From the NCBI RefSeq assembly GCF_024502345.1, contig NZ_JALDNN010000001.1: a stretch of 64,000 nucleotides of DNA; one strand, written 5' to 3'. The position numbers and the translations under genes were made by a program. The notes below the pieces were generated by a model that searched no databases, had not been told where the DNA came from, and was given only the letters and a program-made list of their open reading frames with translations. This stretch comes from Escherichia coli. Its GTDB lineage: Bacteria; Pseudomonadota; Gammaproteobacteria; Enterobacterales; Enterobacteriaceae. The first letter of the stretch is position 1. Every line of letters starts with the position of its first letter. Shown here piece by piece: positions 39,260 through 64,000 of the stretch.

Positions 39260-39429
39260 AATGGCTCACTCAAGCTTGCTCACGATTGATTCCAGTAACA
39301 AACCGTATTGTGTAATTATTTCTATAGCAGCTCGCTATATAGGCTTGTATACATCGAATAATTTGAAAATCAAAGAGATAGGTAGATTTTCACTCGAAAG
39401 TAGTATTACGTGTAAGTGAGGAGTAATTA

Positions 39430-39443
39430 TTGTTCGGTATCAA
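39430..39443 (-). promoter_or_regulatory. FNR binding site of the dmsABC promoter
   Basis: Minus-strand TTGATaccgAACAA matches the FNR consensus with one mismatched half-site position, about 170-185 bp upstream of the dmsA start codon. Confidence 0.65.
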
Positions 39444-39451
39444 AGGGAGAC

Positions 39452-39478
39452 AAAAAAAGCGCCCGTAGGCGCTTTTTA
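39452..39478 (-). terminator. Rho-independent terminator downstream of serS
   Basis: Minus-strand AAGCGCC-tacg-GGCGCTT followed by seven T. Confidence 0.75.
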
Positions 39479-39497
39479 GATTCAGAAAAATTGGGTA

Positions 39498-51252: not shown

Positions 51253-52974
51253 ATGCGCGCTTTGCTACCCTATCTGGCACTGTATAAACGTCATAAATGG
51301 ATGTTAAGTCTTGGTATTGTGCTGGCAATTGTGACGCTGCTCGCCAGTATCGGTCTGTTGACACTTTCCGGCTGGTTCCTCTCGGCCTCAGCGGTTGCGG
51401 GGGTTGCCGGACTGTACAGCTTCAACTATATGCTACCCGCTGCGGGCGTGCGTGGTGCAGCAATCACCCGTACTGCCGGGCGTTATTTTGAACGTCTGGT
51501 AAGTCACGACGCGACTTTCCGCGTGTTGCAGCATCTGCGCATTTACACCTTCAGCAAATTGTTGCCCCTCTCCCCTGCCGGACTGGCGCGCTATCGTCAG
51601 GGCGAATTGCTCAACCGCGTGGTGGCGGATGTTGATACGCTCGATCATCTTTACCTGCGCGTTATCTCGCCGCTGGTGGGCGCTTTTGTGGTGATTATGG
51701 TGGTGACAGTCGGGTTAAGTTTCCTTGATTTCACCCTCGCCTTTACGCTGGGCGGCATTATGTTACTGACGCTTTTCCTGATGCCACCGCTGTTTTATCG
51801 TGCGGGAAAAAGCACCGGGCAAAATCTGACTCATCTTCGCGGACAGTATCGCCAACAACTGACGGCCTGGCTGCAAGGGCAAGCTGAGCTGACCATTTTT
51901 GGTGCCAGCGATCGTTATCGCACGCAACTAGAGAATACAGAAATTCAATGGCTGGAAGCGCAACGCCGTCAATCTGAACTGACCGCATTGTCGCAAGCGA
52001 TAATGCTGCTCATTGGCGCGTTAGCGGTGATCCTGATGCTGTGGATGGCGTCTGGCGGCGTTGGCGGCAATGCTCAACCCGGCGCGTTAATTGCCCTGTT
52101 TGTCTTTTGCGCGTTAGCCGCGTTTGAAGCACTGGCACCAGTAACGGGTGCATTTCAGCATCTGGGGCAAGTCATTGCCTCTGCCGTTCGGATCACTGAT
52201 TTAACGGATCAAAAACCGGAGGTCACCTTCCCTGATACCCAAACTCGTGTTGCCGATCGCGTTTCGCTGACATTACGGGATGTTCAGTTCACTTATCCGG
52301 AGCAATCCCAACAGGCACTTAAAGGGATTTCTCTTCAGGTAAACGCCGGGGAACATATTGCGATTCTCGGGCGAACCGGATGCGGCAAATCAACACTGTT
52401 ACAACTGCTGACCCGCGCTTGGGACCCGCAACAGGGCGAGATTTTGCTTAACGATAGCCCCATAGCCAGCCTGAATGAAGCGGCTCTACGACAGACCATC
52501 AGCGTTGTTCCTCAGCGAGTGCATCTGTTTAGCGCCACGCTGCGTGATAATCTGTTACTCGCCTCGCCTGGCAGTAGTGATGAGGCTCTGTCGGAGATCT
52601 TGCGTCGCGTTGGTCTGGAGAAGCTGCTCGAGGATGCAGGTCTCAACAGTTGGTTAGGTGAAGGCGGACGCCAGCTCTCCGGTGGTGAACTGCGCCGTCT
52701 GGCTATCGCCCGTGCGCTGTTACATGATGCGCCACTGGTGTTGCTGGATGAACCTACCGAAGGCTTAGATGCCACAACCGAAAGCCAGATCCTTGAATTG
52801 CTTGCAGAAATGATGCGTGAGAAAACGGTGTTAATGGTCACCCATCGACTTCGCGGACTCTCTCGTTTCCAACAAATAATAGTGATGGACAACGGGCAAA
52901 TTATTGAGCAAGGTACTCACGCAGAACTGCTTGCCAGACAGGGGCGTTATTACCAGTTCAAGCAGGGTTTGTAA
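51253..52974 (+). CDS. cydC: Cysteine/glutathione ABC exporter subunit CydC
   Basis: ORF track, 573 aa; Walker A GRTGCGKST, signature LSGGELRRL. Start immediately follows the cydD stop. Confidence 0.95.
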   Translation: MRALLPYLALYKRHKWMLSLGIVLAIVTLLASIGLLTLSGWFLSASAVAGVAGLYSFNYMLPAAGVRGAAITRTAGRYFERLVSHDATFRVLQHLRIYTFSKLLPLSPAGLARYRQGELLNRVVADVDTLDHLYLRVISPLVGAFVVIMVVTVGLSFLDFTLAFTLGGIMLLTLFLMPPLFYRAGKSTGQNLTHLRGQYRQQLTAWLQGQAELTIFGASDRYRTQLENTEIQWLEAQRRQSELTALSQAIMLLIGALAVILMLWMASGGVGGNAQPGALIALFVFCALAAFEALAPVTGAFQHLGQVIASAVRITDLTDQKPEVTFPDTQTRVADRVSLTLRDVQFTYPEQSQQALKGISLQVNAGEHIAILGRTGCGKSTLLQLLTRAWDPQQGEILLNDSPIASLNEAALRQTISVVPQRVHLFSATLRDNLLLASPGSSDEALSEILRRVGLEKLLEDAGLNSWLGEGGRQLSGGELRRLAIARALLHDAPLVLLDEPTEGLDATTESQILELLAEMMREKTVLMVTHRLRGLSRFQQIIVMDNGQIIEQGTHAELLARQGRYYQFKQGL

Positions 52975-53015
52975 GCTATTATTGAACGATCCGACTTGCG
53001 TGGAGTTTTGCGGTC

Positions 53016-53720
53016 ATGCGCCTGGTTCAGCTTTCTCGCCATTCAATAGCCTTCCCTTCCCCGGAAGGCGCATTACGTGAGCCTAACGGCCTGCTGGCAC
53101 TTGGGGGCGATCTTAGCCCTGCGCGCCTGTTAATGGCTTACCAGCGTGGTATTTTTCCGTGGTTTTCTCCAGGCGACCCCATCCTCTGGTGGTCGCCCGA
53201 TCCCCGCGCGGTGCTATGGCCAGAATCACTGCATATCAGCCGTAGTATGAAGCGATTTCATAAACGCTCGCCCTATCGTGTCACGATGAATTACGCTTTT
53301 GGTCAGGTCATTGAAGGCTGTGCCAGCGATCGCGAAGAAGGAACCTGGATCACGCGTGGCGTGGTCGAAGCCTACCATCGCCTTCACGAACTCGGTCATG
53401 CCCACTCCATTGAAGTCTGGCGTGAAGATGAGCTTGTCGGCGGTATGTACGGCGTGGCCCAGGGAACGCTATTTTGTGGCGAGTCCATGTTCAGCCGGAT
53501 GGAAAATGCGTCTAAAACGGCGCTTCTGGTATTCTGTGAGGAATTTATCGGTCATGGCGGTAAGCTTATCGACTGCCAGGTCCTTAACGATCACACAGCA
53601 TCGCTTGGTGCCTGCGAAATTCCCCGCCGGGATTACCTTAATTATCTCAATCAAATGCGCCTCGGACGATTGCCGATTAATTTCTGGGTACCACGATGCT
53701 TGTTTTCACCACAAGAATGA
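53016..53720 (+). CDS. aat: Leucyl/phenylalanyl-tRNA--protein transferase
   Basis: ORF track, 234 aa, [20 protein letters not shown].... Confidence 0.95.
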
Positions 53721-54001
53721 ATGTTTTCGGCACATTTCTCCCCAGAGTGTTATAATTGCGGTCGCAGAGTTGGTTACGCTCATTACCCCGCTGCCGATAA
53801 GGAATTTTTCGCGTCAGGTAACGCCCATCGTTTATCTCACCGCTCCCTTATACGTTGCGCTTTTGGTGCGGCTTAGCCGTGTGTTTTCGGAGTAATGTGC
53901 CGAACCTGTTTGTTGCGATTTAGCGCGCAAATCTTTACTTATTTACAGAACTTCGGCATTATCTTGCCGGTTCAAATTACGGTAGTGATACCCCAGAGGA
54001 T

Positions 54002-54223
<222 letters not shown>

Positions 54224-54404
54224 TTGTTTTACCGCCTGATGGGCGAAGAGAAAGAACGAGTAAAAGGTCGGTTTAACCGGCCTTTTTATTTTGTGATATG
54301 TATGAAGTACTTTGGAAGTATAAGTCCATAACTTGTCTCGATGTAGATATACTGCACAACTTGTTTACAGTATGAGCAAACAATAATTATCATTAAAATT
54401 CTTC

Positions 54405-54433
54405 TTGACCGTTTTACTCCAACTCCCTATAGT
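54405..54433 (+). promoter_or_regulatory. serW promoter (sigma70) with GC-rich discriminator
   Basis: TTGACC (54405..54410), 17-nt spacer, TATAGT (54428..54433), then GC-rich AGCGCCCCG before the tRNA; typical of stringently controlled stable-RNA promoters. Confidence 0.6.
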
Positions 54434-54476
54434 AGCGCCCCGTTGCCACCCATGAGGTTTGGCAGCAAAACAATTT

Positions 54477-54564
54477 GGTGAGGTGTCCGAGTGGCTGAAG
54501 GAGCACGCCTGGAAAGTGTGTATACGGCAACGTATCGGGGGTTCGAATCCCCCCCTCACCGCCA
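54477..54564 (+). tRNA. serW: tRNA-Ser (anticodon GGA)
   Basis: 88 nt GGTGAGGTGTCCGAGTGGCTGAAGGAGCACGCCTGGAAAGTGTG...GGTTCGAATCCCCCCCTCACCGCCA. Acceptor stem GGTGAGG/CCTCACC, anticodon loop CTGGAAA, long variable arm, encoded CCA. Confidence 0.93.
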
Positions 54565-54576
54565 TATTTAAAGAAG

Positions 54577-54606
54577 AGCTCGTACGAAAGTACGGGCTTT
54601 TTTTTC
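54577..54606 (+). terminator. Rho-independent terminator downstream of serW
   Basis: 9-bp stem AGCTCGTAC-gaaa-GTACGGGCT followed by nine T. Confidence 0.8.
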
Positions 54607-54615
54607 GCATTTTAT

Positions 54616-54695
54616 CTGCCTGTACGGCAGTGAACATGGTGGGCGGGTGGAGTATGTTACCAGTGAATTTCTAAGCTGCCTGTACGGCAGTGAAC
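54616..54695 (+). repeat. Pair of identical 20-bp direct repeats, each a small hairpin, downstream of serW
   Basis: CTGCCTGTACGGCAGTGAAC at 54616..54635 and again at 54676..54695, exactly 60 bp start to start. Each contains the dyad CTGCC-tgtac-GGCAG. Confidence 0.8.
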
Positions 54696-54850
54696 TCAAA
54701 TACTACACGTTTAGCCCGTTGTTAATAAAGCAAAACCATCTCATTTTCCTGCTGTCACCCTTTTTTATCCTTACCTTTTCCAGCAGCACTAATTATCAAC
54801 AACTTACCTTCACCTCCAAAAATAGGGTTTTCACCGTTCCACCCCATAAA

Positions 54851-54885
54851 TAAAAAGTCCGTAACCTCTTTCGAGATTACGGACT
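54851..54885 (-). terminator. Rho-independent terminator downstream of clpA
   Basis: Minus-strand hairpin GTCCGTAA ... TTACGGAC followed by TTTTTATTTATG. Confidence 0.65.
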
Positions 54886-54909
54886 TCACCAACCTACCTG
54901 ACAATCAGA

Positions 54910-57186
54910 TTAATGCGCTGCTTCCGCCTTGTGCTTTTGTGCACTCTGGAATCCGTAAGTCAGCTCATTTTTCTCTTTATCCAGCGCGACGGTGACCTGA
55001 CCGCCGTCCACCAGCGAACCAAACAGCAGTTCGTTGGCAAGCGGTTTTTTCAGGTTGTCCTGGATGACACGCGCCATCGGACGTGCGCCCATTGCCCGGT
55101 CGTAACCTTTCTCGGCCAGCCAGTTACGCGCTTCCTGGCTCACTTCCAGAGAAACACCTTTCTGATCCAGCTGAACCTGCAACTCGACGATGAATTTATC
55201 CACCACCTGATGGATCACGTCAGTTGACAGATGATCGAACCAGATAATGTTGTCGAGACGGTTACGGAATTCCGGTGTAAAGATCTTCTTGATCTCTTCC
55301 ATCGCATCGGTGCTGTTATCCTGGTGGATAAGACCAATGGATTTGCGCTCAGTTTCCCGTACCCCGGCGTTAGTGGTCATCACCAGCACCACGTTACGGA
55401 AGTCCGCTTTGCGTCCGTTGTTATCGGTCAGCGTACCGTTGTCCATCACCTGCAACAGAATATTGAACACGTCCGGATGCGCTTTCTCGATTTCGTCCAG
55501 CAGCAGCACCGCATGTGGATGCTTGATTACCGCATCGGTCAGCAAACCGCCCTGATCAAAACCAACGTATCCCGGAGGCGCACCAATCAGACGGCTGACG
55601 GTATGGCGTTCCATATACTCGGACATATCAAAGCGCAGAAGCTCAATGCCCAACGCTTTCGAAAGCTGTACCGTCACCTCTGTTTTCCCGACCCCGGTAG
55701 GGCCGGCAAACAGGAACGAACCGACAGGTTTATGTTCGTGACCTAAACCTGCACGCGCCATCTTAATGGCTTCAGTCAGCGCCTCAATGGCTTTATCCTG
55801 ACCGAAGACCAGCATTTTCAGGCGATCGCCGAGGTTTTTCAGGGTAGCGCGGTCACTCTGAGAAACACTCTTCTCTGGAATGCGTGCAATACGGGCCACC
55901 ACGGACTCAATATCCGCCACATTTACGGTTTTCTTGCGTTTGCTTACCGGCATCAGGCGTGCGCGAGCGCCCGCTTCGTCGATAACATCAATCGCTTTAT
56001 CCGGCAGATGACGATCGTTAATGTATTTCACCGCCAGCTCTACCGCCGCACGCACCGCTTTTGCGGTATAACGCACGTCGTGGTGCGCTTCATACTTCGG
56101 TTTCAGGCCATTGATGATTTGAACAGTTTCTTCGATCGACGGTTCAGTAATATCAATTTTCTGGAAGCGACGCGCCAGAGCACGGTCTTTCTCGAAAATG
56201 TTGCTGAACTCCTGATAGGTTGTCGAACCAATTACGCGAATTTTACCGCTGGAGAGCAACGGTTTGATTAGGTTAGCCGCATCGACCTGACCACCAGACG
56301 CTGCACCCGCACCGATAATGGTGTGGATCTCATCAATAAACAGGATGCTGTTAGTGTCCTGCTCCAGCTGCTTGAGCAACGCTTTAAAACGTTTTTCAAA
56401 GTCGCCGCGATATTTTGTGCCCGCTAACAGAGAACCGATATCGAGAGAGTAAATTGTACAGTCAGCCATCACTTCCGGCACATCGCCCTGAACAATTCGC
56501 CAGGCAAGACCTTCTGCAATCGCGGTTTTACCGACACCAGATTCCCCCACTAGCAGCGGGTTGTTTTTACGGCGACGGCAGAGAACCTGAATAGCACGCT
56601 CCAGCTCCTTCTCACGACCAATCAGTGGGTCGATTCCGCCCACGCGCGCAAGCTGATTCAGGTTCGTCGTGAAATTCTCCATACGTTCCTCCCCACCAGC
56701 TTGTTCTTCGCTGTTTGGCTGGCTGCCAGGATCAGAAGACTGTGTCGGCTCGTCTTTACGCGTGCCATGAGAGATAAAGTTCACCACATCGAGACGGCTG
56801 ACTTCATGTTTACGCAACAGATATGCCGCCTGCGACTCCTGTTCGCTAAAGATAGCGACCAGAACGTTTGCACCGGTAACCTCATTGCGACCGGAGGACT
56901 GGACATGGAAGACCGCACGTTGCAGTACACGCTGAAAACTCAGCGTCGGCTGTGTGTCGCGCTCCTCTTCACTGGCAGGCAGAACGGGTGTGGTTTGTTC
57001 AATAAAGGCTTCCAGTTCCTGACGGAGCGCAACCAAATCCACAGAACACGCTTCCAGCGCCTCCCGGGCAGATGGGTTACTGAGCAGCGCCAGTAACAAG
57101 TGCTCGACGGTCATAAACTCATGACGGTGCTCGCGCGCTCTGGCGAAAGCCATATTTAAACTGAGTTCCAGTTCTTGATTGAGCAT
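54910..57186 (-). CDS. clpA: ATP-dependent Clp protease ATP-binding subunit ClpA
   Basis: ORF track 54910..57201. ATG at 57186 gives [19 protein letters not shown]... (758 aa); two AAA+ modules ([16 protein letters not shown]). Confidence 0.97.
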
Positions 57187-57216
57187 AGGCACCTCCCCCA
57201 ATTTTTATGCCTGCAT

Positions 57217-57537
57217 TCAGGCTTTTTCTAGCGTACACAGCAATGGATGCTCATTCTCCCTCGCGTACTTGTTCACCATCGCCACTTTGGTTTCTGCAAC
57301 CTCGGCGGTAAAGACTCCGCAAATGGCCTTCCCCTGGTAGTGAACAGCGAGCATCAATTGCGTTGCACGTTCTACATCATAAGAAAAGAATTTTTGTAAC
57401 ACGTCAATAACAAACTCCATCGGAGTGTAATCATCATTGACTAATATCACTTTATACATAGATGGCGGTTTTAGCGCGTCGCGAACTTTTTCTTCCGCCA
57501 GTTGATCAAAGTCCAGCCAGTCGTTCGTTTTACCCAT
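57217..57537 (-). CDS. clpS: ClpA adaptor protein ClpS
   Basis: ORF track, 106 aa, [43 protein letters not shown].... Confidence 0.95.
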
Positions 57538-57859
57538 TGTCAGTTATCATCTTCGGTTACGGTTATCGGCAGAACGCCCTGCCGCTGACAAGAGCTTATT
57601 TGCCTGACCAATCTACTCCACATGATAGATAACTATCATCTATCGTTGGCATCAGCGACATCTGTCACATTCCTGTCAATAGCGTTAACTGCTTCAAATT
57701 TTTGATTCATACCTGCCCCCTGGCCCCTGTCAAATGCTTGACGGCTCGCCCTAATTCTCTAAATTGTATTTCTAGAGTTGGCGAGGTTTTGAACAGCCCC
57801 CTCTCTGACCCCGGTTTATTCCATCTTACTTGTATAAGATTTGCGAAGGATGTCGAAGC

Positions 57860-58084
57860 ATGGAAAAGGGTACTGTTAAGTGGTTCAACAATGCCAAAGG
57901 GTTTGGTTTCATCTGCCCTGAAGGCGGCGGCGAAGATATTTTCGCTCATTATTCCACCATTCAGATGGATGGTTACAGAACGCTAAAAGCTGGACAATCC
58001 GTTCAGTTTGATGTCCACCAGGGGCCAAAAGGCAATCACGCCAGTGTTATTGTGCCCGTCGAAGTAGAAGCGGCAGTCGCATAG
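57860..58084 (+). CDS. cspD: Cold-shock-domain protein CspD (stationary-phase replication inhibitor)
   Basis: ORF track 57830..58084. ATG at 57860 gives MEKGTVKWFNNAKGFGFICPEGGGEDIFAHYSTI... (74 aa). Confidence 0.95.
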   Translation: MEKGTVKWFNNAKGFGFICPEGGGEDIFAHYSTIQMDGYRTLKAGQSVQFDVHQGPKGNHASVIVPVEVEAAVA

Positions 58085-58116
58085 CTCTTCTGTCTCATTG
58101 TGTACATCCTAAAGGC

Positions 58117-58148
58117 AAAATGCCAGCCCGATCGGCTGGCATTTTTAT
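58117..58148. terminator. Bidirectional terminator between convergent cspD and macB
   Basis: AAAATGCCAGCC-cgatcg-GGCTGGCATTTT: long palindrome with A-run and T-run flanks. Confidence 0.75.
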
Positions 58149-58156
58149 CTCAAAAA

Positions 58157-60103
58157 TTACTCTCGTGCCAGAGCATCTACTGGATCCAGTCGTGCCGCAT
58201 TTCGTGCGGGTAACCATCCAAATAAAATCCCGGTGGCCGTCGAGCAGAGAAACGCCAGCAGCAGTGCCAACGGTGAAAAACCAATCTCCCAGCCGGGTAA
58301 GAAAAGCTGCAAGGTGAAAGCAATTAACAGTGACAGTGTTATTCCCAACGCGCCACCGACCAGGCAAACCAGTACGGCTTCGATCAGGAACTGTTGCAAA
58401 ACATCGCTTGCTCGCGCACCTACAGCCATGCGAATGCCAATTTCCCGCGTCCGCTCGGTCACTGACACCAGCATAATATTCATTACACCAATACCGCCCA
58501 CCACCAGCGAAATCACCGCCACCAGCGTCAGAAACAGTTGTAAAGTACGTGTGGTCTTTTCAACGGTTTTCAAGACGCCGTCCATGTTCCAGGTAAAGAA
58601 ATCCTTCTTACCGTGGCGCAGTGAAAGTAAACGCGTGAGTTGCTGTTCCGCCTCGGCGCTGTCAAATCCTTCTTTCACCCTGACAGTAATGGAGTTAAGC
58701 CACGACTGGCCCATAACTCGCCCGGACATCGTGCTGTAAGGTAGCCAGACACGCAGCACTTTACTGCTACCAAACATCGACTGTTTTTCTTCCGCCACAC
58801 CAATGACTCTGGCGGGCATATTGCCGACCAGAATCACCTCGCCAACCACATCTGCTTTATGGGGGAAAAGCTGGCGGCGAGTATTACTGTCGAGAACCAC
58901 TACCTGCGCACGACCGTTCAGCTGCTCCTGATTAAAGGTGTTTCCTTCACTGAAGGTCATGCCATAGACATTAAAATAATCGCCGCTCACGCCATTGGCA
59001 CTGGCAGCAACATCAACATTGTTGTAACGCAGGCGCAGGTTTTGCGAGACGGCAGGTGTGGCTGAAGCGACCCACGGTTGTTTTTGGATGGCGATTAAGT
59101 CATCGTACTTCAGCGCCTGCTGATATTGCGGATCGTCATCGCCAAAATCTTTCCCGGGGTAGACGTCAATAGTATTCGTACCAATAGAACGAATATCCGC
59201 CAGCACCATTTGTTTGGCGGCGTCACCTACCACGACAATGGAAACCACCGACGCAATACCGATAATAATCCCCAGCATGGTCAGTAAAGTACGCATTTTA
59301 TTCGCTGCCAACGCCCGCCACGCCATCGTCAGCGCCTCGTTAAAACCGCTGACAAACTGCCGCCAGCCAGACACCGTGTTGACAACAGGTTCCGTCCGTC
59401 CAGCAACATTCACTTTTTCAATGGCGGGAGGATTGCGCACAATTTCGCCGTCGCGAATTTCGATCACCCGCTCGGCCTGAGCAGCGACCTGCGGATCGTG
59501 AGTGACGATAATCACCGTATGCCCGCGATCGCGCAGCTGATGCAGGATCGCCATCACCTCTTCGCCTGAATGGCTGTCCAGTGCGCCGGTCGGTTCATCG
59601 GCAAGAATTACCTGACCGCCGTTCATCAATGCCCGCGCGATGCTAACGCGCTGTTGCTGACCACCCGAAAGCTGTGCCGGATAATACTCTGTACGGTCTT
59701 CCAGCCCCAGTCGTTGCAGTAACTCCTGGGCGCGAAGCAGCCGCTGTTTCCGCTCAAGACCGGCATAGACGGCGGGTACTTCAACGTTCTGCTCGGCGGT
59801 TAAATGCGAAAGCAAATGGTAACGCTGGAAAATAAAGCCGAAATGCTCGCGGCGCAGTTGCGCCAGCGCATCGGCGTCCAGTGTGGCAACATCCTGACCG
59901 GCGACGCGATAGGTGCCGCTGGTGGCCTTATCCAGACAGCCGAGAATATTCATCAGGGTCGATTTACCGGAACCCGAAGCGCCAACAATCGCTACCATCT
60001 CACCGGCATAAATATCGAGGGTGATGCCCTTCAGCACCTCAACCTGCTCATCACCGGCAGGATAGCTGCGACGAATATCCTTTAATTCGAGCAAAGGCGT
60101 CAT
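58157..60103 (-). CDS. macB: Macrolide/peptide export ABC transporter MacB (ATPase-permease fusion)
   Basis: ORF track, 648 aa; Walker [10 protein letters not shown], signature LSGGQQQR. Confidence 0.95.
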
Positions 60104-61215
60104 TGTGCAGCTCCTGGTTTGGCCTCACCAATCACCACTTCATCGCCCGCTTCCAGCCCTTTGACAATCTCAACATCGGTATCGTTACGTGCGCCAATCG
60201 TCACTTCACGCTCGCGTGTTTCACCATTACGCAACAATTTGACTTTATAACGATTATCGCCAACCGGATCGCCTAACGCCGACAGAGGGATCGTCAGCAC
60301 ATTTTTCACATCGGTGAGCTGAATATGCACTTGCGCAGTCATATCCAGCCGCAGCAAACCATTGGGGTTGGGGACTTCAAAACGGGCGTAATAGAAAATA
60401 GCGTCGTTAACCTTTTCCGGCGTCGGTAGTACATCCTTGATTTGCCCCTCGTAGCGCGTCAGTGGATCGCCAAGTACCGTAAACCAGGCTTTTTGCCCCG
60501 GCTTCAGGTGGATTACATCCGCTTCAGAAACCTGCGCTTTTACCAGCATGGTGCTCATATCTGCCAGCGTCAGAATGTTCGGTGCTTGTTGTGCGGCAAT
60601 CACCGTCTGGCCTTGCAGAGTGGTGATTTGCGTGACTTCCCCGGCCATCGGGGCAACGATGCGAGTGTAATCGAGATTGGTTTTAGCCGTATCGAGAGAA
60701 GCCTGATTGCGCTTGATTTGCGCGTCAATGGTGCCAATTTGCGCCTGTTTCACAGCCATCTCCGTCGCGGCGGTGTCGAGATCCTGCTGTGAAACCGCCT
60801 GCGTTTGTGCCAGACGTTGCTGACGGGAATACGTCACCCGCGCCAGTTTCAGCTCCGCTTCCGCCTGCTGCCGCTGCGCGCGTAGCTCCATCAGCGTTGC
60901 TTCGACCTCCTTGATCTGGTTTTCAGCCTGTTCAGGATCAATGACCCCTAAAAGCTGGTCTTTTTTTACTTTATCGCCAATCGCCACCGACAGCGTTTTC
61001 AACTGACCGCTGACCTGCGCGCCCACATCAACCTTACGCAGCGCGTCCAGCTTTCCGGTCGCCAGCACGCTTTGCTGTAAATCACCGGGGCGCACAATCA
61101 GTGTCTGGTAAGTCGGCACGGGTGCGTTAAGAATTCTCCATAACGTAATCAGTCCGGCGATGACTATCACCAGCGCAATAACGTAACGCTTCTTCACGGT
61201 TTTCCGCTTTTTCAT
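60100..61215 (-). CDS. macA: Membrane fusion protein MacA
   Basis: ORF track 60100..61242. ATG at 61215 gives [22 protein letters not shown]... (371 aa). 4-nt overlap with the macB start. Confidence 0.93.
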
Positions 61216-61329
61216 AAATATTCTGAATACTCCATATGCCAATCCGGGTCATTAACTTCAACGAAATATCAACAAAACCCTAAAATTTACGTTAGTAATC
61301 ACACTATTGATGTTTGGTTAAGATACGCA

Positions 61330-62322
61330 ATGGTGAAATCGACGTCATGTATAACCATTGATTTCATGAATATGTCGCAGCTAACTGAACGGACCTTTAC
61401 GCCATCTGAATCTCTCAGCAGCCTGTCACTTTTTCTTAGTCTGGCACGTGGACAGTGTCGGCCGGGTAAATTCTGGCATCGCCGTAGTTTTCGCCAGAAA
61501 TTTTTGCTGCGCTCGTTGATTATGCCGCGTTTAAGCGTTGAGTGGATGAACGAACTTTCCCACTGGCCTAATCTCAATGTATTGTTAACGCGCCAGCCGC
61601 GACTGCCTGTACGTCTGCATCGCCCTTACCTTGCGGCGAATCTTAGCCGTAAGCAATTGCTGGAGGCGTTACGTTACCATTATGCGTTACTCCGCGGGTG
61701 TATGTCGGCGGAAGAATTCAGCTTATATTTGAATACCCCCGGGCTGCAACTGGCGAAGCTGGAAGGCAAAAACGGCGAGCAGTTCACGCTTGAGCTGACC
61801 ATGATGATCTCAATGGATAAAGAAGGTGATAGCACAATCCTGTTCCGCAACAGCGAAGATATTCCTCTGGCAGAAATCACGTTTACCCTGTGCGAATATC
61901 AGGGGAAAAGAACGATGTTTATTGGTGGACTGCAAGGCGCAAAATGGGAAATTCCACATCAGGAAATCCAGAATGCGACGAAAGCCTGCCACGGGCTATT
62001 TCCCAAACGCCTCGTGATGGAAGCGGCCTGTCTGTTTGCCCAACGTTTGCAGGTAGAGCAGATTATTGCCGTCAGCAATGAAACGCATATTTACCGCAGC
62101 CTGCGTTATCGCGATAAAGAAGGCAAGATCCATGCCGATTACAACGCTTTCTGGGAATCGGTTGGCGGCGTATGTGATGCTGAACGCCATTACCGCCTTC
62201 CAGCACAGATAGCACGAAAAGAGATTGCCGAAATCGCCAGTAAAAAACGGGCTGAATACCGTCGGCGCTATGAGATGCTCGACGCTATTCAGCCACAAAT
62301 GGCCACGATGTTTCGCGGTTAA
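61330..62322 (+). CDS. ybjX: VirK/DUF535-family protein YbjX
   Basis: ORF track, 330 aa. Start uncertain: in-frame ATGs at 61366 and 61372 (MNMSQLTERTF) are alternatives. Confidence 0.8.
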   Translation: MVKSTSCITIDFMNMSQLTERTFTPSESLSSLSLFLSLARGQCRPGKFWHRRSFRQKFLLRSLIMPRLSVEWMNELSHWPNLNVLLTRQPRLPVRLHRPYLAANLSRKQLLEALRYHYALLRGCMSAEEFSLYLNTPGLQLAKLEGKNGEQFTLELTMMISMDKEGDSTILFRNSEDIPLAEITFTLCEYQGKRTMFIGGLQGAKWEIPHQEIQNATKACHGLFPKRLVMEAACLFAQRLQVEQIIAVSNETHIYRSLRYRDKEGKIHADYNAFWESVGGVCDAERHYRLPAQIARKEIAEIASKKRAEYRRRYEMLDAIQPQMATMFRG

Positions 62323-63977
62323 TCCGCGCGACCGCGCGCCAGCCACAGCACGCGTGAGAACATTTTTTTCAGCAGCGTCGGTACGGAGTCCACACCACGA
62401 CGTCCGGCCTCCATTGCCACTTCAATGGCAAGATCGGGTTTGGAAGAGCGATGGATCGCTTTCGAGATAATTTTGCGCAGATTCATCGGTACATTTTCCG
62501 GGATTTGCGCCACGCGGTGGAACACATCGGAAAATCCCTGGCGATACATAAAATGTTCCATATCCAGCGCCGGTAACGCCGTTAAATGTTCTCGTTCGGC
62601 TTCCCGATCATTATTCAACAGGCTGCGTACCGTAGCGGCATATTTCTTCCCTGCTTCATCGCCATCGACCAGTACATGCCATTCAATCCCCATTCGCCGG
62701 GCAAATTTAACCAGTGGCTTTAGCCCGGACTGGGCAAACTCAATGACCTTGATCCCTTCGGCATCAAAATGATGTCCGCACTGACGCGCCAGTTCATTGA
62801 TAACCCAGGTTTCCGTTTCCCCTTCCACCAGCAACCAGCAGCGAGCAAACAGCGATGACGGACGATTAAAACGAATGTGAAAAGAGATGCGGCGGCTGTC
62901 TTCGGTGCTCAAGCCACTTGGCCCCAGACGCCAGGCGGCAACGCGCGAGGACTCACGTACCAGGCGGCAAACATGTTCCACTGGAGTTAACGAAAGCAGC
63001 TCGCCAGAGTTGGTGGTAGCAATACGTTGTAAAGGCAAAAGATTCAACAGATGCCAGGCAACTGAAAGCATAATGGGGTGTAAACGCGTTTCTGGATCTT
63101 CGATCAGCAACAATGGACGGGCGTCTTTATCCAGTCGCAATGTGCCTTTTGCCTGCAATAAAGTAGCAAACAGGCCGAGCAAAATAACCCGATACGAGCG
63201 CCCTCCAGGTCGGTCAATCATCCGGTTGATGATGTCCAGATAGCGCCAGCTTCGTTGCTCATTGCTGGCCCGCCGCCGCATTAAACGATATCGCGCCTGT
63301 CCAGCCCCCTGCTCAGAGAAATAATGCTCAAGCAACTGCACCATTGCGGAAAGTCCCTGACGAATCTGTCCATCAGAGAGATTTTGCGGATGTGAGGACA
63401 ACTCACGGGCGAGGAAATCGAGCTGGCGCGCGGTGACTTCCACATTGGGGACATTTGGCACCGTGCCGTTACGAATACGGCGCATAAAACGGGCATCACG
63501 CAAGCGCAGCACCGGCATTAAACGCACCAGATGGCGTGCCTGATCGTTAATATCCTCAACATCAATCGGATGTCCGTCTTTATCGAGAAAACTGCGCAGT
63601 GTCATCACGCTGCCGTCTTCCGCACTCTCCCCTTCCAGACGATAAAAAATACGGTGATAGCCATCGGTGCATGGCGTCCAGCACGCTTCCAGCGGCCGAT
63701 AACGGCGAACCCGATGTCGGCCTGGCAGCGATTCGCGGAAGGTCAAAATAATATGCAGATGATGTTCCCGACCGTTGATATCTCCCGGCGGGAACCAGAA
63801 ATCGTCGCGCTCAAAATGGTAGAGATCTGATTCTGGCGATAGCAGCAAGGTTAAGGCGTCCAGCAAGCTGGATTTACCCCACGCGTTCTCCCCAATCAGG
63901 ACGTTGTTTTGTTCCAGCATCAACGACAAACGGTTGATACCGCGAAAACCCACAATTTCAACGCGCTCAAGAATCAT
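62319..63977 (-). CDS. ybjD: OLD-family (overcoming lysogenization defect) ABC-ATPase/Toprim nuclease YbjD
   Basis: ORF track, 552 aa; N-terminal Walker A GENAWGKSS, D-loop/Walker B LLLIEDPETRLHP, C-terminal Toprim motifs LVEGETE and DGDEAG. Confidence 0.88.
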   Translation of the reverse strand: MILERVEIVGFRGINRLSLMLEQNNVLIGENAWGKSSLLDALTLLLSPESDLYHFERDDFWFPPGDINGREHHLHIILTFRESLPGRHRVRRYRPLEACWTPCTDGYHRIFYRLEGESAEDGSVMTLRSFLDKDGHPIDVEDINDQARHLVRLMPVLRLRDARFMRRIRNGTVPNVPNVEVTARQLDFLARELSSHPQNLSDGQIRQGLSAMVQLLEHYFSEQGAGQARYRLMRRRASNEQRSWRYLDIINRMIDRPGGRSYRVILLGLFATLLQAKGTLRLDKDARPLLLIEDPETRLHPIMLSVAWHLLNLLPLQRIATTNSGELLSLTPVEHVCRLVRESSRVAAWRLGPSGLSTEDSRRISFHIRFNRPSSLFARCWLLVEGETETWVINELARQCGHHFDAEGIKVIEFAQSGLKPLVKFARRMGIEWHVLVDGDEAGKKYAATVRSLLNNDREAEREHLTALPALDMEHFMYRQGFSDVFHRVAQIPENVPMNLRKIISKAIHRSSKPDLAIEVAMEAGRRGVDSVPTLLKKMFSRVLWLARGRAD

Positions 63978-64000
63978 ATCCCCTCCAGAAATATGTGACT

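Follow-up and report, generated by a model that had tools for sequence, protein, structure and literature searches.

The type I-F CRISPR-Cas system of Escherichia coli sits between clpA and infA (PMC3903273), and the array found at this place goes under two names, CRISPR4.1-2 in the nomenclature of the Mojica laboratory and CRISPR3 'anti-CRISPR' in that of Touchon & Rocha 2010 (PMC3903273, PMC2886076). E. coli I-F arrays have a periodicity of 60 nt, and their PAM is CC on the 5' side of the protospacer in the crRNA-sense strand, at its leader-proximal end (given there as GG; PMC3506596). Touchon & Rocha interpreted a short array with spacers against the I-F cas genes as an 'anti-CRISPR' that would bar elements carrying the cognate system, and they expected neutral spacers to be lost through repeat-mediated deletion (PMC2886076). 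A review by the Mojica laboratory on the work of Almendros et al. 2016 states that orphan arrays are expressed constitutively, that native orphan arrays interfere with plasmids bearing the complete I-F cas set, and that this targeting primes the uptake of more plasmid-derived spacers (PMC8616872). Díez-Villaseñor et al. (2010) are cited for self-targeting spacers as a drive of cas loss (PMC2886076, PMC8616872). Here we analyze a pair of short direct repeats in a 64,000-nt stretch of E. coli DNA (the whole stretch analyzed is called the window), and we regard the pair as very probably an orphan type I-F CRISPR4 'anti-cas' array, which would block incoming I-F systems by means of a cas1f-targeting crRNA. 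Such an element is already known, having been described since 2010 and tested experimentally in 2016.

The sequence CTGCCTGTACGGCAGTGAAC occurs at positions 54616-54635 and 54676-54695 (+) of the window, in two perfect copies whose starts are 60 nt apart. Tolerating up to 3 mismatches brought up no third copy in the 64-kb window, and 100 dinucleotide-preserving shuffles never reproduced the match. Within each copy there is a 5-bp dyad, CTGCC/GGCAG, with a 5-nt loop. The sequence-only reading had reported a perfect 20-bp direct repeat pair, each copy with a hairpin, 60 bp apart, and the exact matches and the shuffles bear this out. It had placed the pair between the serW terminator and the clpA 3' end, and the tRNA, both terminators and the end of the clpA ORF (54910, convergent with serW) were located as it stated. 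The window reads aat-infA-serW-array-clpA-clpS, an order that is colinear both with that of K-12 and with the I-F locus flanks. The 20-bp unit stands in so far as the identity is perfect over 20 nt, but the true unit is 28 nt: the clpA-side copy includes 8 more nt (54668-54675), which are degenerate in the serW-side copy. The unit was taken as 20 bp rather than 28 because the serW-side repeat keeps only the 20-nt hairpin part. Besides the 28-nt unit, that reading had overlooked the 32-nt spacer between the units and the minus strand as the informative one.

Read on the minus strand, the elements follow one another as an A/T-rich stretch, GTTCACTGCCGTACAGGCAGCTTAGAAA, TTCACTGGTAACATACTCCACCCGCCCACCAT, GTTCACTGCCGTACAGGCAGATAAAATG and the serW terminator. 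The geometry is that of a minimal array with two repeats and one spacer (28 + 32 + 28 nt, period 60 nt), which has fewer repeats than many CRISPR finders require. The leader-proximal repeat (R1) matches the Rfam family CRISPR-DR4 (RF01317; gathering score 35) on the minus strand with 50.1 bits, and the match covers the whole model (positions 1-28 of 28). The leader-distal repeat (R2) also matches CRISPR-DR4 over its full length, with a score of only 29.7 bits, under the gathering score, because its last eight bases are degenerate. A scan of the whole window with Rfam at gathering thresholds returned only three hits, and the CRISPR repeat is one of them. The sequence-only reading had said that membership in a known dispersed repeat family would count against it, and the family found is CRISPR-DR4. 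The only RNA-family match in the window besides serW and the CRISPR repeat is STnc130, an enterobacterial sRNA, at 39350-39484 (+), with 139.1 bits against a gathering score of 55.

When the two repeats are folded separately as minus-strand RNA, each forms a 5-bp/5-nt hairpin of -8.6 kcal/mol. When the 101-nt array region is folded as a whole, the z-score is -1.38, which is non-significant, since in the minimum-energy structure one repeat is paired with the other. In type I-F processing, Cas6f/Csy4 binds the repeat hairpin and cuts at the 3' base of the hairpin, so the 20 nt kept in R2 correspond to the 3' handle needed by a single crRNA. The degenerate 8 nt of R2 would be of use only as the 5' handle of a next spacer, and no spacer follows. 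Given Cas6f, the predicted crRNA (Table 1) would consist of an 8-nt 5' handle, CUUAGAAA, the 32-nt spacer and a 20-nt 3' hairpin handle, as extracted from the sequence. Of the three earlier proposals, that of RNA hairpins on a read-through transcript thus came closest. It was right about the hairpins, since the repeats are CRISPR repeats whose RNA hairpin is the element recognized by Cas6f/Csy4, but not about the transcript, which would run on the minus strand from the clpA-side leader and not as read-through from serW.

Table 1. Features of the array and of its setting in the window; minus-strand features are given from the higher to the lower coordinate.
Feature	Position	Strand	Basis or remark
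Leader-proximal CRISPR repeat R1, GTTCACTGCCGTACAGGCAGCTTAGAAA, 28 nt, type I-F / CRISPR-4	54695->54668	-	Rfam RF01317
Single 32-nt spacer, TTCACTGGTAACATACTCCACCCGCCCACCAT in crRNA sense, targets cas1f	54667->54636	-	cas1f match with CC
Terminal, leader-distal repeat R2, GTTCACTGCCGTACAGGCAGATAAAATG	54635->54608	-	First 20 nt intact, last 8 nt degenerate
Predicted 60-nt mature crRNA, given Cas6f	54675->54616	-	Inferred from the known Cas6f/Csy4 cut
CRISPR leader, 158 nt	54853->54696	-	Homologous to the CRISPR4.1 leader
clpA intrinsic terminator hairpin, upstream boundary of the leader	54887->54854	-	15-pair stem then T-run; inverted repeat
serW, tRNA-Ser(GGA)	54477-54564	+	ARAGORN; Rfam tRNA 53.8 bits
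serW intrinsic terminator, abuts the terminal repeat	54570-54605	+	16-pair stem then T8

We searched the 64-kb window for I-F cas genes with tblastn of six I-F Cas proteins, and found none: the matches are at chance level, apart from 11 residues at 54635-54667 that correspond to the spacer. This makes the array an orphan. Judged from its sequence, the locus is a member of the CRISPR-4 repeat family, yet it is not a complete CRISPR-Cas system.

We compared the window with the cas-carrying strain FDAARGOS_1284 (L001), in which the order is infA, CRISPR4.2, serW, cas6f-csy3-csy2-csy1-cas3f-cas1f, CRISPR4.1 and clpA. Three blocks correspond, namely a colinear flank (window 51421-54287 = L001 1-2867), the serW block (window 54396-54605 = L001 3505-3714) and a block with 97.9% identity that reaches the end of the window (54668-64000 = L001 12483-21813). 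The third block starts at the first CRISPR4.1 repeat and its leader, indicating that the 158 nt between the clpA terminator and R1 are the CRISPR4.1 leader. The comparison also bears on the CRISPR identity of the pair: the homologous repeats of cas-carrying strains do belong to arrays adjoining cas genes. The GC content of the leader is 38%, compared with 51% for the window, and its repeat-proximal ~110 nt are nearly invariant among 10 strains. A consensus scan of the minus strand of the leader found no sigma-70-like promoter, and reading the leader by eye gave just weak -35/-10 candidates with poor spacing, none of which we name as a promoter.

The same comparison yielded several observations on the surroundings of the array. 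The segment 54288-54395 (+) of the window, in the infA-serW region, has no counterpart in FDAARGOS_1284, which carries CRISPR4.2 and its leader there (L001 2868-3504); because CRISPR4.2 takes the place of this segment, the two forms of the locus differ on both sides of serW. The CRISPR4.2 array of that strain (L001 2915-3243) has the variant repeat end GTTCACTGCCGTACAGGCAGTCTTCAAA instead of ...CTTAGAAA, and the csy1 of the strain (L001 6279-7586) has an internal stop and is annotated as a pseudogene. In FDAARGOS_943, whose copy of this region is identical (L005 424-558, equal to window 54755-54889 (-)), RefSeq has a 44-aa 'hypothetical protein', WP_000843684.1. This ORF, which is probably spurious, overlaps both the clpA terminator and the CRISPR leader.

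The target of the spacer lies in a gene of the I-F system itself. A search with the 32-mer spacer gave matches in 2578 of 5426 complete E. coli genomes, and in the cas-carrying genomes among the matches listed the match lies inside cas1f. In the cas1f of FDAARGOS_1284, the protospacer TTCGCTGGTAACATACTCCACCCGCCCACCAT (L001 12001-12032) is identical to the spacer at 31 of 32 positions and has CC directly 5'. The protospacer covers codons 33-43 of Cas1f, and the sole difference, an A/G at spacer position 4, is a synonymous one. A further allele came from a scan that took one genome per GTDB species: the cas1f of E. coli E69 (L004, CP089930.1), which adjoins a 37-repeat I-F array, matches the window spacer at 32 of 32 positions, again with CC 5'. 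The E69 gene shares 90.8% nucleotide identity with the cas1f of L001, and 310 of 327 amino acids are identical. The side and the sequence of the PAM agree with the E. coli I-F definition at both protospacers (L001 and L004). That the spacer had mutated at position 4 (A/G) was considered and dropped in view of the E69 match; the match with CC indicates instead that the window spacer copies a natural cas1f allele without mutation. E69, a single genome, is the only one in which a 32/32 target of the window spacer was found; in the 5426 RefSeq complete genomes the E69-type allele does not occur, and the best full-length match there is 95%.

Spacer position 4 lies within the I-F seed. Against the common, B2-type cas1f allele, the mismatch at this position would therefore be expected to weaken direct interference, while priming tolerates a mismatch, and we would expect weakened interference together with priming rather than clean interference. 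A PLSDB search of plasmids with the cas1f protospacer segment gave no match. In four complete E. coli genomes the spacer has two matching places, and a plasmid record holds one match; duplications of the locus, or a copy of cas1f or the array on a mobile element, could account for such matches.

From these features we infer that the window allele would be capable of interference, in the following way. The array would be transcribed from the leader on the minus strand and would stay idle as long as the cell lacks I-F Cas proteins. If a mobile element brought an I-F cas operon into the cell, the incoming Cas6f would cut at the base of both repeat hairpins and release the single 60-nt crRNA (54675->54616). 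The incoming Csy complex would load this crRNA and recognize the CC-flanked protospacer in the incoming cas1f, upon which Cas2-3 would degrade the incoming DNA. Imperfect matches would also prime the acquisition of more spacers. The net role of the array would be that of an 'anti-cas' device, which keeps an I-F system from establishing itself.

We next consider how the spacer and its target are distributed in the population. The exact window spacer is present in 545 of the 5426 complete E. coli genomes (O157:H7 strains are among the matches listed), and the cas1f protospacer segment is present in 241. No genome has both, each being found in at most one place per genome. An overlap of about 24 genomes is expected by chance, which gives a hypergeometric P of 4.5e-12, a value that is uncorrected for phylogeny and inflated by shared ancestry. 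The mutual exclusion is likewise confounded by phylogeny, as the I-F cas genes are mostly found in one clade. The clpA-serW intergenic region is present in 5424 of the 5426 complete genomes. Among the matches listed, this region mostly has no annotation, occasionally carries the annotation 'CRISPR', and sometimes has a 'hypothetical protein' in the leader.

Ten other cas-less loci were sampled across the identity range. Their arrays have 1-3 spacers each (2-4 repeats), and all ten have the same ...GATAAAATG terminal end. In these ten loci, the window and K-12 together there are 12 distinct spacers, and 11 of the 12 match cas1f, cas3f or csy3 of L001, in alignments of 17-32 nt and with CC directly 5' in 10 of the 11. 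Leaving the window spacer aside, 10 of the 11 others match I-F cas genes when K-12 is included, and 9 of 10 when it is left out. The anti-cas pattern of the spacers in the sampled arrays is an independent reproduction of the published pattern.

Several of these relatives show decay. The K-12 array differs from the window by T->A at spacer position 6, and the terminal repeat of K-12 MG1655 (L002 1533-1560) has a G->A substitution within the stem (CAGACAG) that weakens the hairpin from -8.6 to -1.4 kcal/mol, so an array of the K-12 type may be processed poorly at the 3' end of its crRNA. The window copy is better preserved than the K-12 copy. Mutated terminal repeats are also found in L009 and L014, and the stem change G->A (CAGACAG) recurs in the terminal repeats of L008, L012 and L013. 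The array of E. coli 2018-11-3CC (L007, 615-819) has three spacers, of which the first is 33 nt long; one of its spacers is the cas1f spacer shortened to 28 nt by an internal deletion of 4 nt. In JADFJT010000085.1 (L003), a contig of a metagenome-assembled genome named 'Proteobacteria bacterium', the array at 1123-1210 equals the K-12 copy down to the K-12-specific changes, and this contig is probably E. coli-derived sequence.

These signs of decay bear on the rival that we rank as the serious alternative, namely that the pair is an inert relic, the remnant of a lost I-F system whose self-targeting perhaps selected for the loss and which persists by inertia. The stem G->A in K-12, the 4-nt spacer deletion in L007 and the terminal repeats of L009 and L014 are what such a relic might look like in relatives, but the window copy retains both hairpins and a complete spacer. 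The window has no cas genes, just one spacer and no promoter by consensus scan, all in line with a remnant, and self-targeting-driven loss of cas was proposed by Díez-Villaseñor et al. (cited in PMC2886076, PMC8616872). Inertia fits poorly, however, with a region that is kept in 5424 of 5426 genomes and with retained spacers that are nearly all anti-cas with correct PAMs, since neutral spacers should be deleted via the repeats (PMC2886076). It also fits poorly with the reported interference of native orphan arrays with cas plasmids (PMC8616872). We therefore consider an inert relic unlikely.

The spacers leave room for another thought. Spacers that differ at positions 4 and 6 could reflect different alleles of cas1f, the window spacer being an exact copy of the rare E69-type allele and not of the common B2-type one, and the orphan arrays could then record the I-F variants met by each lineage. 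That the arrays form such a record, or, less modestly, that the array is kept in nearly all E. coli also for a Cas-free role of its minus-strand transcript or hairpins, in clpA 3'-end formation, in convergent transcription with serW or as a small RNA, seems to us improbable even when the two are taken jointly, and it is to the two jointly that this judgement applies.

A role entirely independent of Cas is less probable still. The repeats would in that case be binding sites for a dimeric protein, extra terminators or insulators for clpA and serW, or a small regulatory RNA, and the position between convergent terminators, the stable hairpins and the very wide retention could all be read in this way. 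Against extra terminators, clpA and serW already have strong intrinsic terminators, and the repeat hairpins lack T-runs. Against protein-binding sites, 2-4 repeats and differing spacers across strains misfit a fixed binding geometry; the paired sites for a dimeric DNA-binding protein that the sequence-only reading had put forward find no support. Against a small RNA, no Rfam sRNA family scores above threshold here and the hairpin is broken in K-12. We hold such a role to be very improbable.

The weakest alternative, an att-like duplication in which site-specific integration or excision at serW left the direct repeats, can practically be set aside: tRNA 3' flanks are often integration sites and at least one strain, A0 34/86, does have an integrase island at serW, but the repeat is not tRNA-derived, the window contains the serW 3' end only once, CRISPR-DR4 matches the repeats over its full length, the intervening 32 nt match cas1f, nothing mobile lies between the copies, and the junction of the A0 34/86 island lies inside the tRNA 3' end, with both repeats together outside the island. 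The att-like relic of the sequence-only reading falls with the unduplicated serW 3' end and the CRISPR-DR4 match, and the splitting of the pair by an island at serW, for which it had proposed to look, is not seen in A0 34/86, where the pair is intact.

Two strains are of note at the serW site. In A0 34/86 (L009/L015, NZ_CP120567.1 3520000-3549100), the tyrosine-integrase island sits at the serW 3' end and the CRISPR pair on the clpA side; 14 nt of the serW 3' end are left beside the terminator, and ARAGORN finds no tRNA there. In E. coli JCH767 (L010, NZ_CP132019.1 1785487-1786631), two units annotated 'RtT sRNA' by RefSeq lie at the place of serW (~746-1060), where ARAGORN likewise finds no tRNA, and the serW-terminator-like segment ATATGCGAAAAAAAAGCTCGCACTT recurs after the first RtT unit, pointing to a rearrangement or an expansion of repeats here.

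The orphan 'anti-cas' array thus remains the preferred reading of the pair, and it offers a clear example from nature of a CRISPR array directed at the genes of its own system. RefSeq is mostly blank here or has a hypothetical ORF in the leader, because an array of two repeats falls under the threshold of CRISPR finders, and scans can be expected to come upon the element again and again. The earlier statement that no annotated feature is known at this place accordingly holds for most RefSeq records but not for the literature, in which the element is well described (PMC3903273, PMC2886076, PMC8616872). What is new here is mild and confined to the level of the allele: the array is intact, compared with the decay in K-12, its spacer has an exact E69-type match, and it has a position-4 mismatch to the common allele. 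Together, the intact hairpins, the exact E69 match and this mismatch provide a basis for a test of seed mismatch and priming with a native array.

Finally, we compared the window array with known systems. It shares with tRNA-linked att duplications a short direct repeat near a tRNA 3' end, but its copies are not island boundaries. Compared with type I-F repeats generally (RF01317; Pseudomonas, Yersinia, Pectobacterium), R1 equals the consensus at 27 of 28 positions and has the 5-bp stem and 5-nt loop placed identically; it differs at one loop base, with U for c at position 12. Those repeats are the substrate of Cas6f/Csy4, whereas the window array has no cognate Cas6f in the window. The functional CRISPR4.1 arrays of LF82, UTI89 and FDAARGOS_1284 are closer: their repeat is identical to R1, their leader, adjoining clpA, is homologous, and they have the same orientation and 60-nt period. 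Unlike the window array, they adjoin cas1f-cas3f-csy1-csy2-csy3-cas6f and are paired with CRISPR4.2 between infA and serW, while the window has neither these genes nor the second array. They also have non-cas spacers and another terminal repeat (...GTATTCAC), neither of which is found in the window. The window array is itself an example of the orphan CRISPR4 (CRISPR4.1-2), which has the same clpA-infA locus by serW, the same 28-nt repeat and leader, and the same ...GATAAAATG terminal repeat; as in the window, the cas-F genes are absent and the spacer is directed against an I-F cas gene with the correct PAM. Differences are confined to alleles: the K-12 form of this orphan array differs from the window at spacer position 6 (A, compared with T in the window) and by its mutated terminal-repeat stem, whereas O157:H7 strains have the spacer allele in common with the window.
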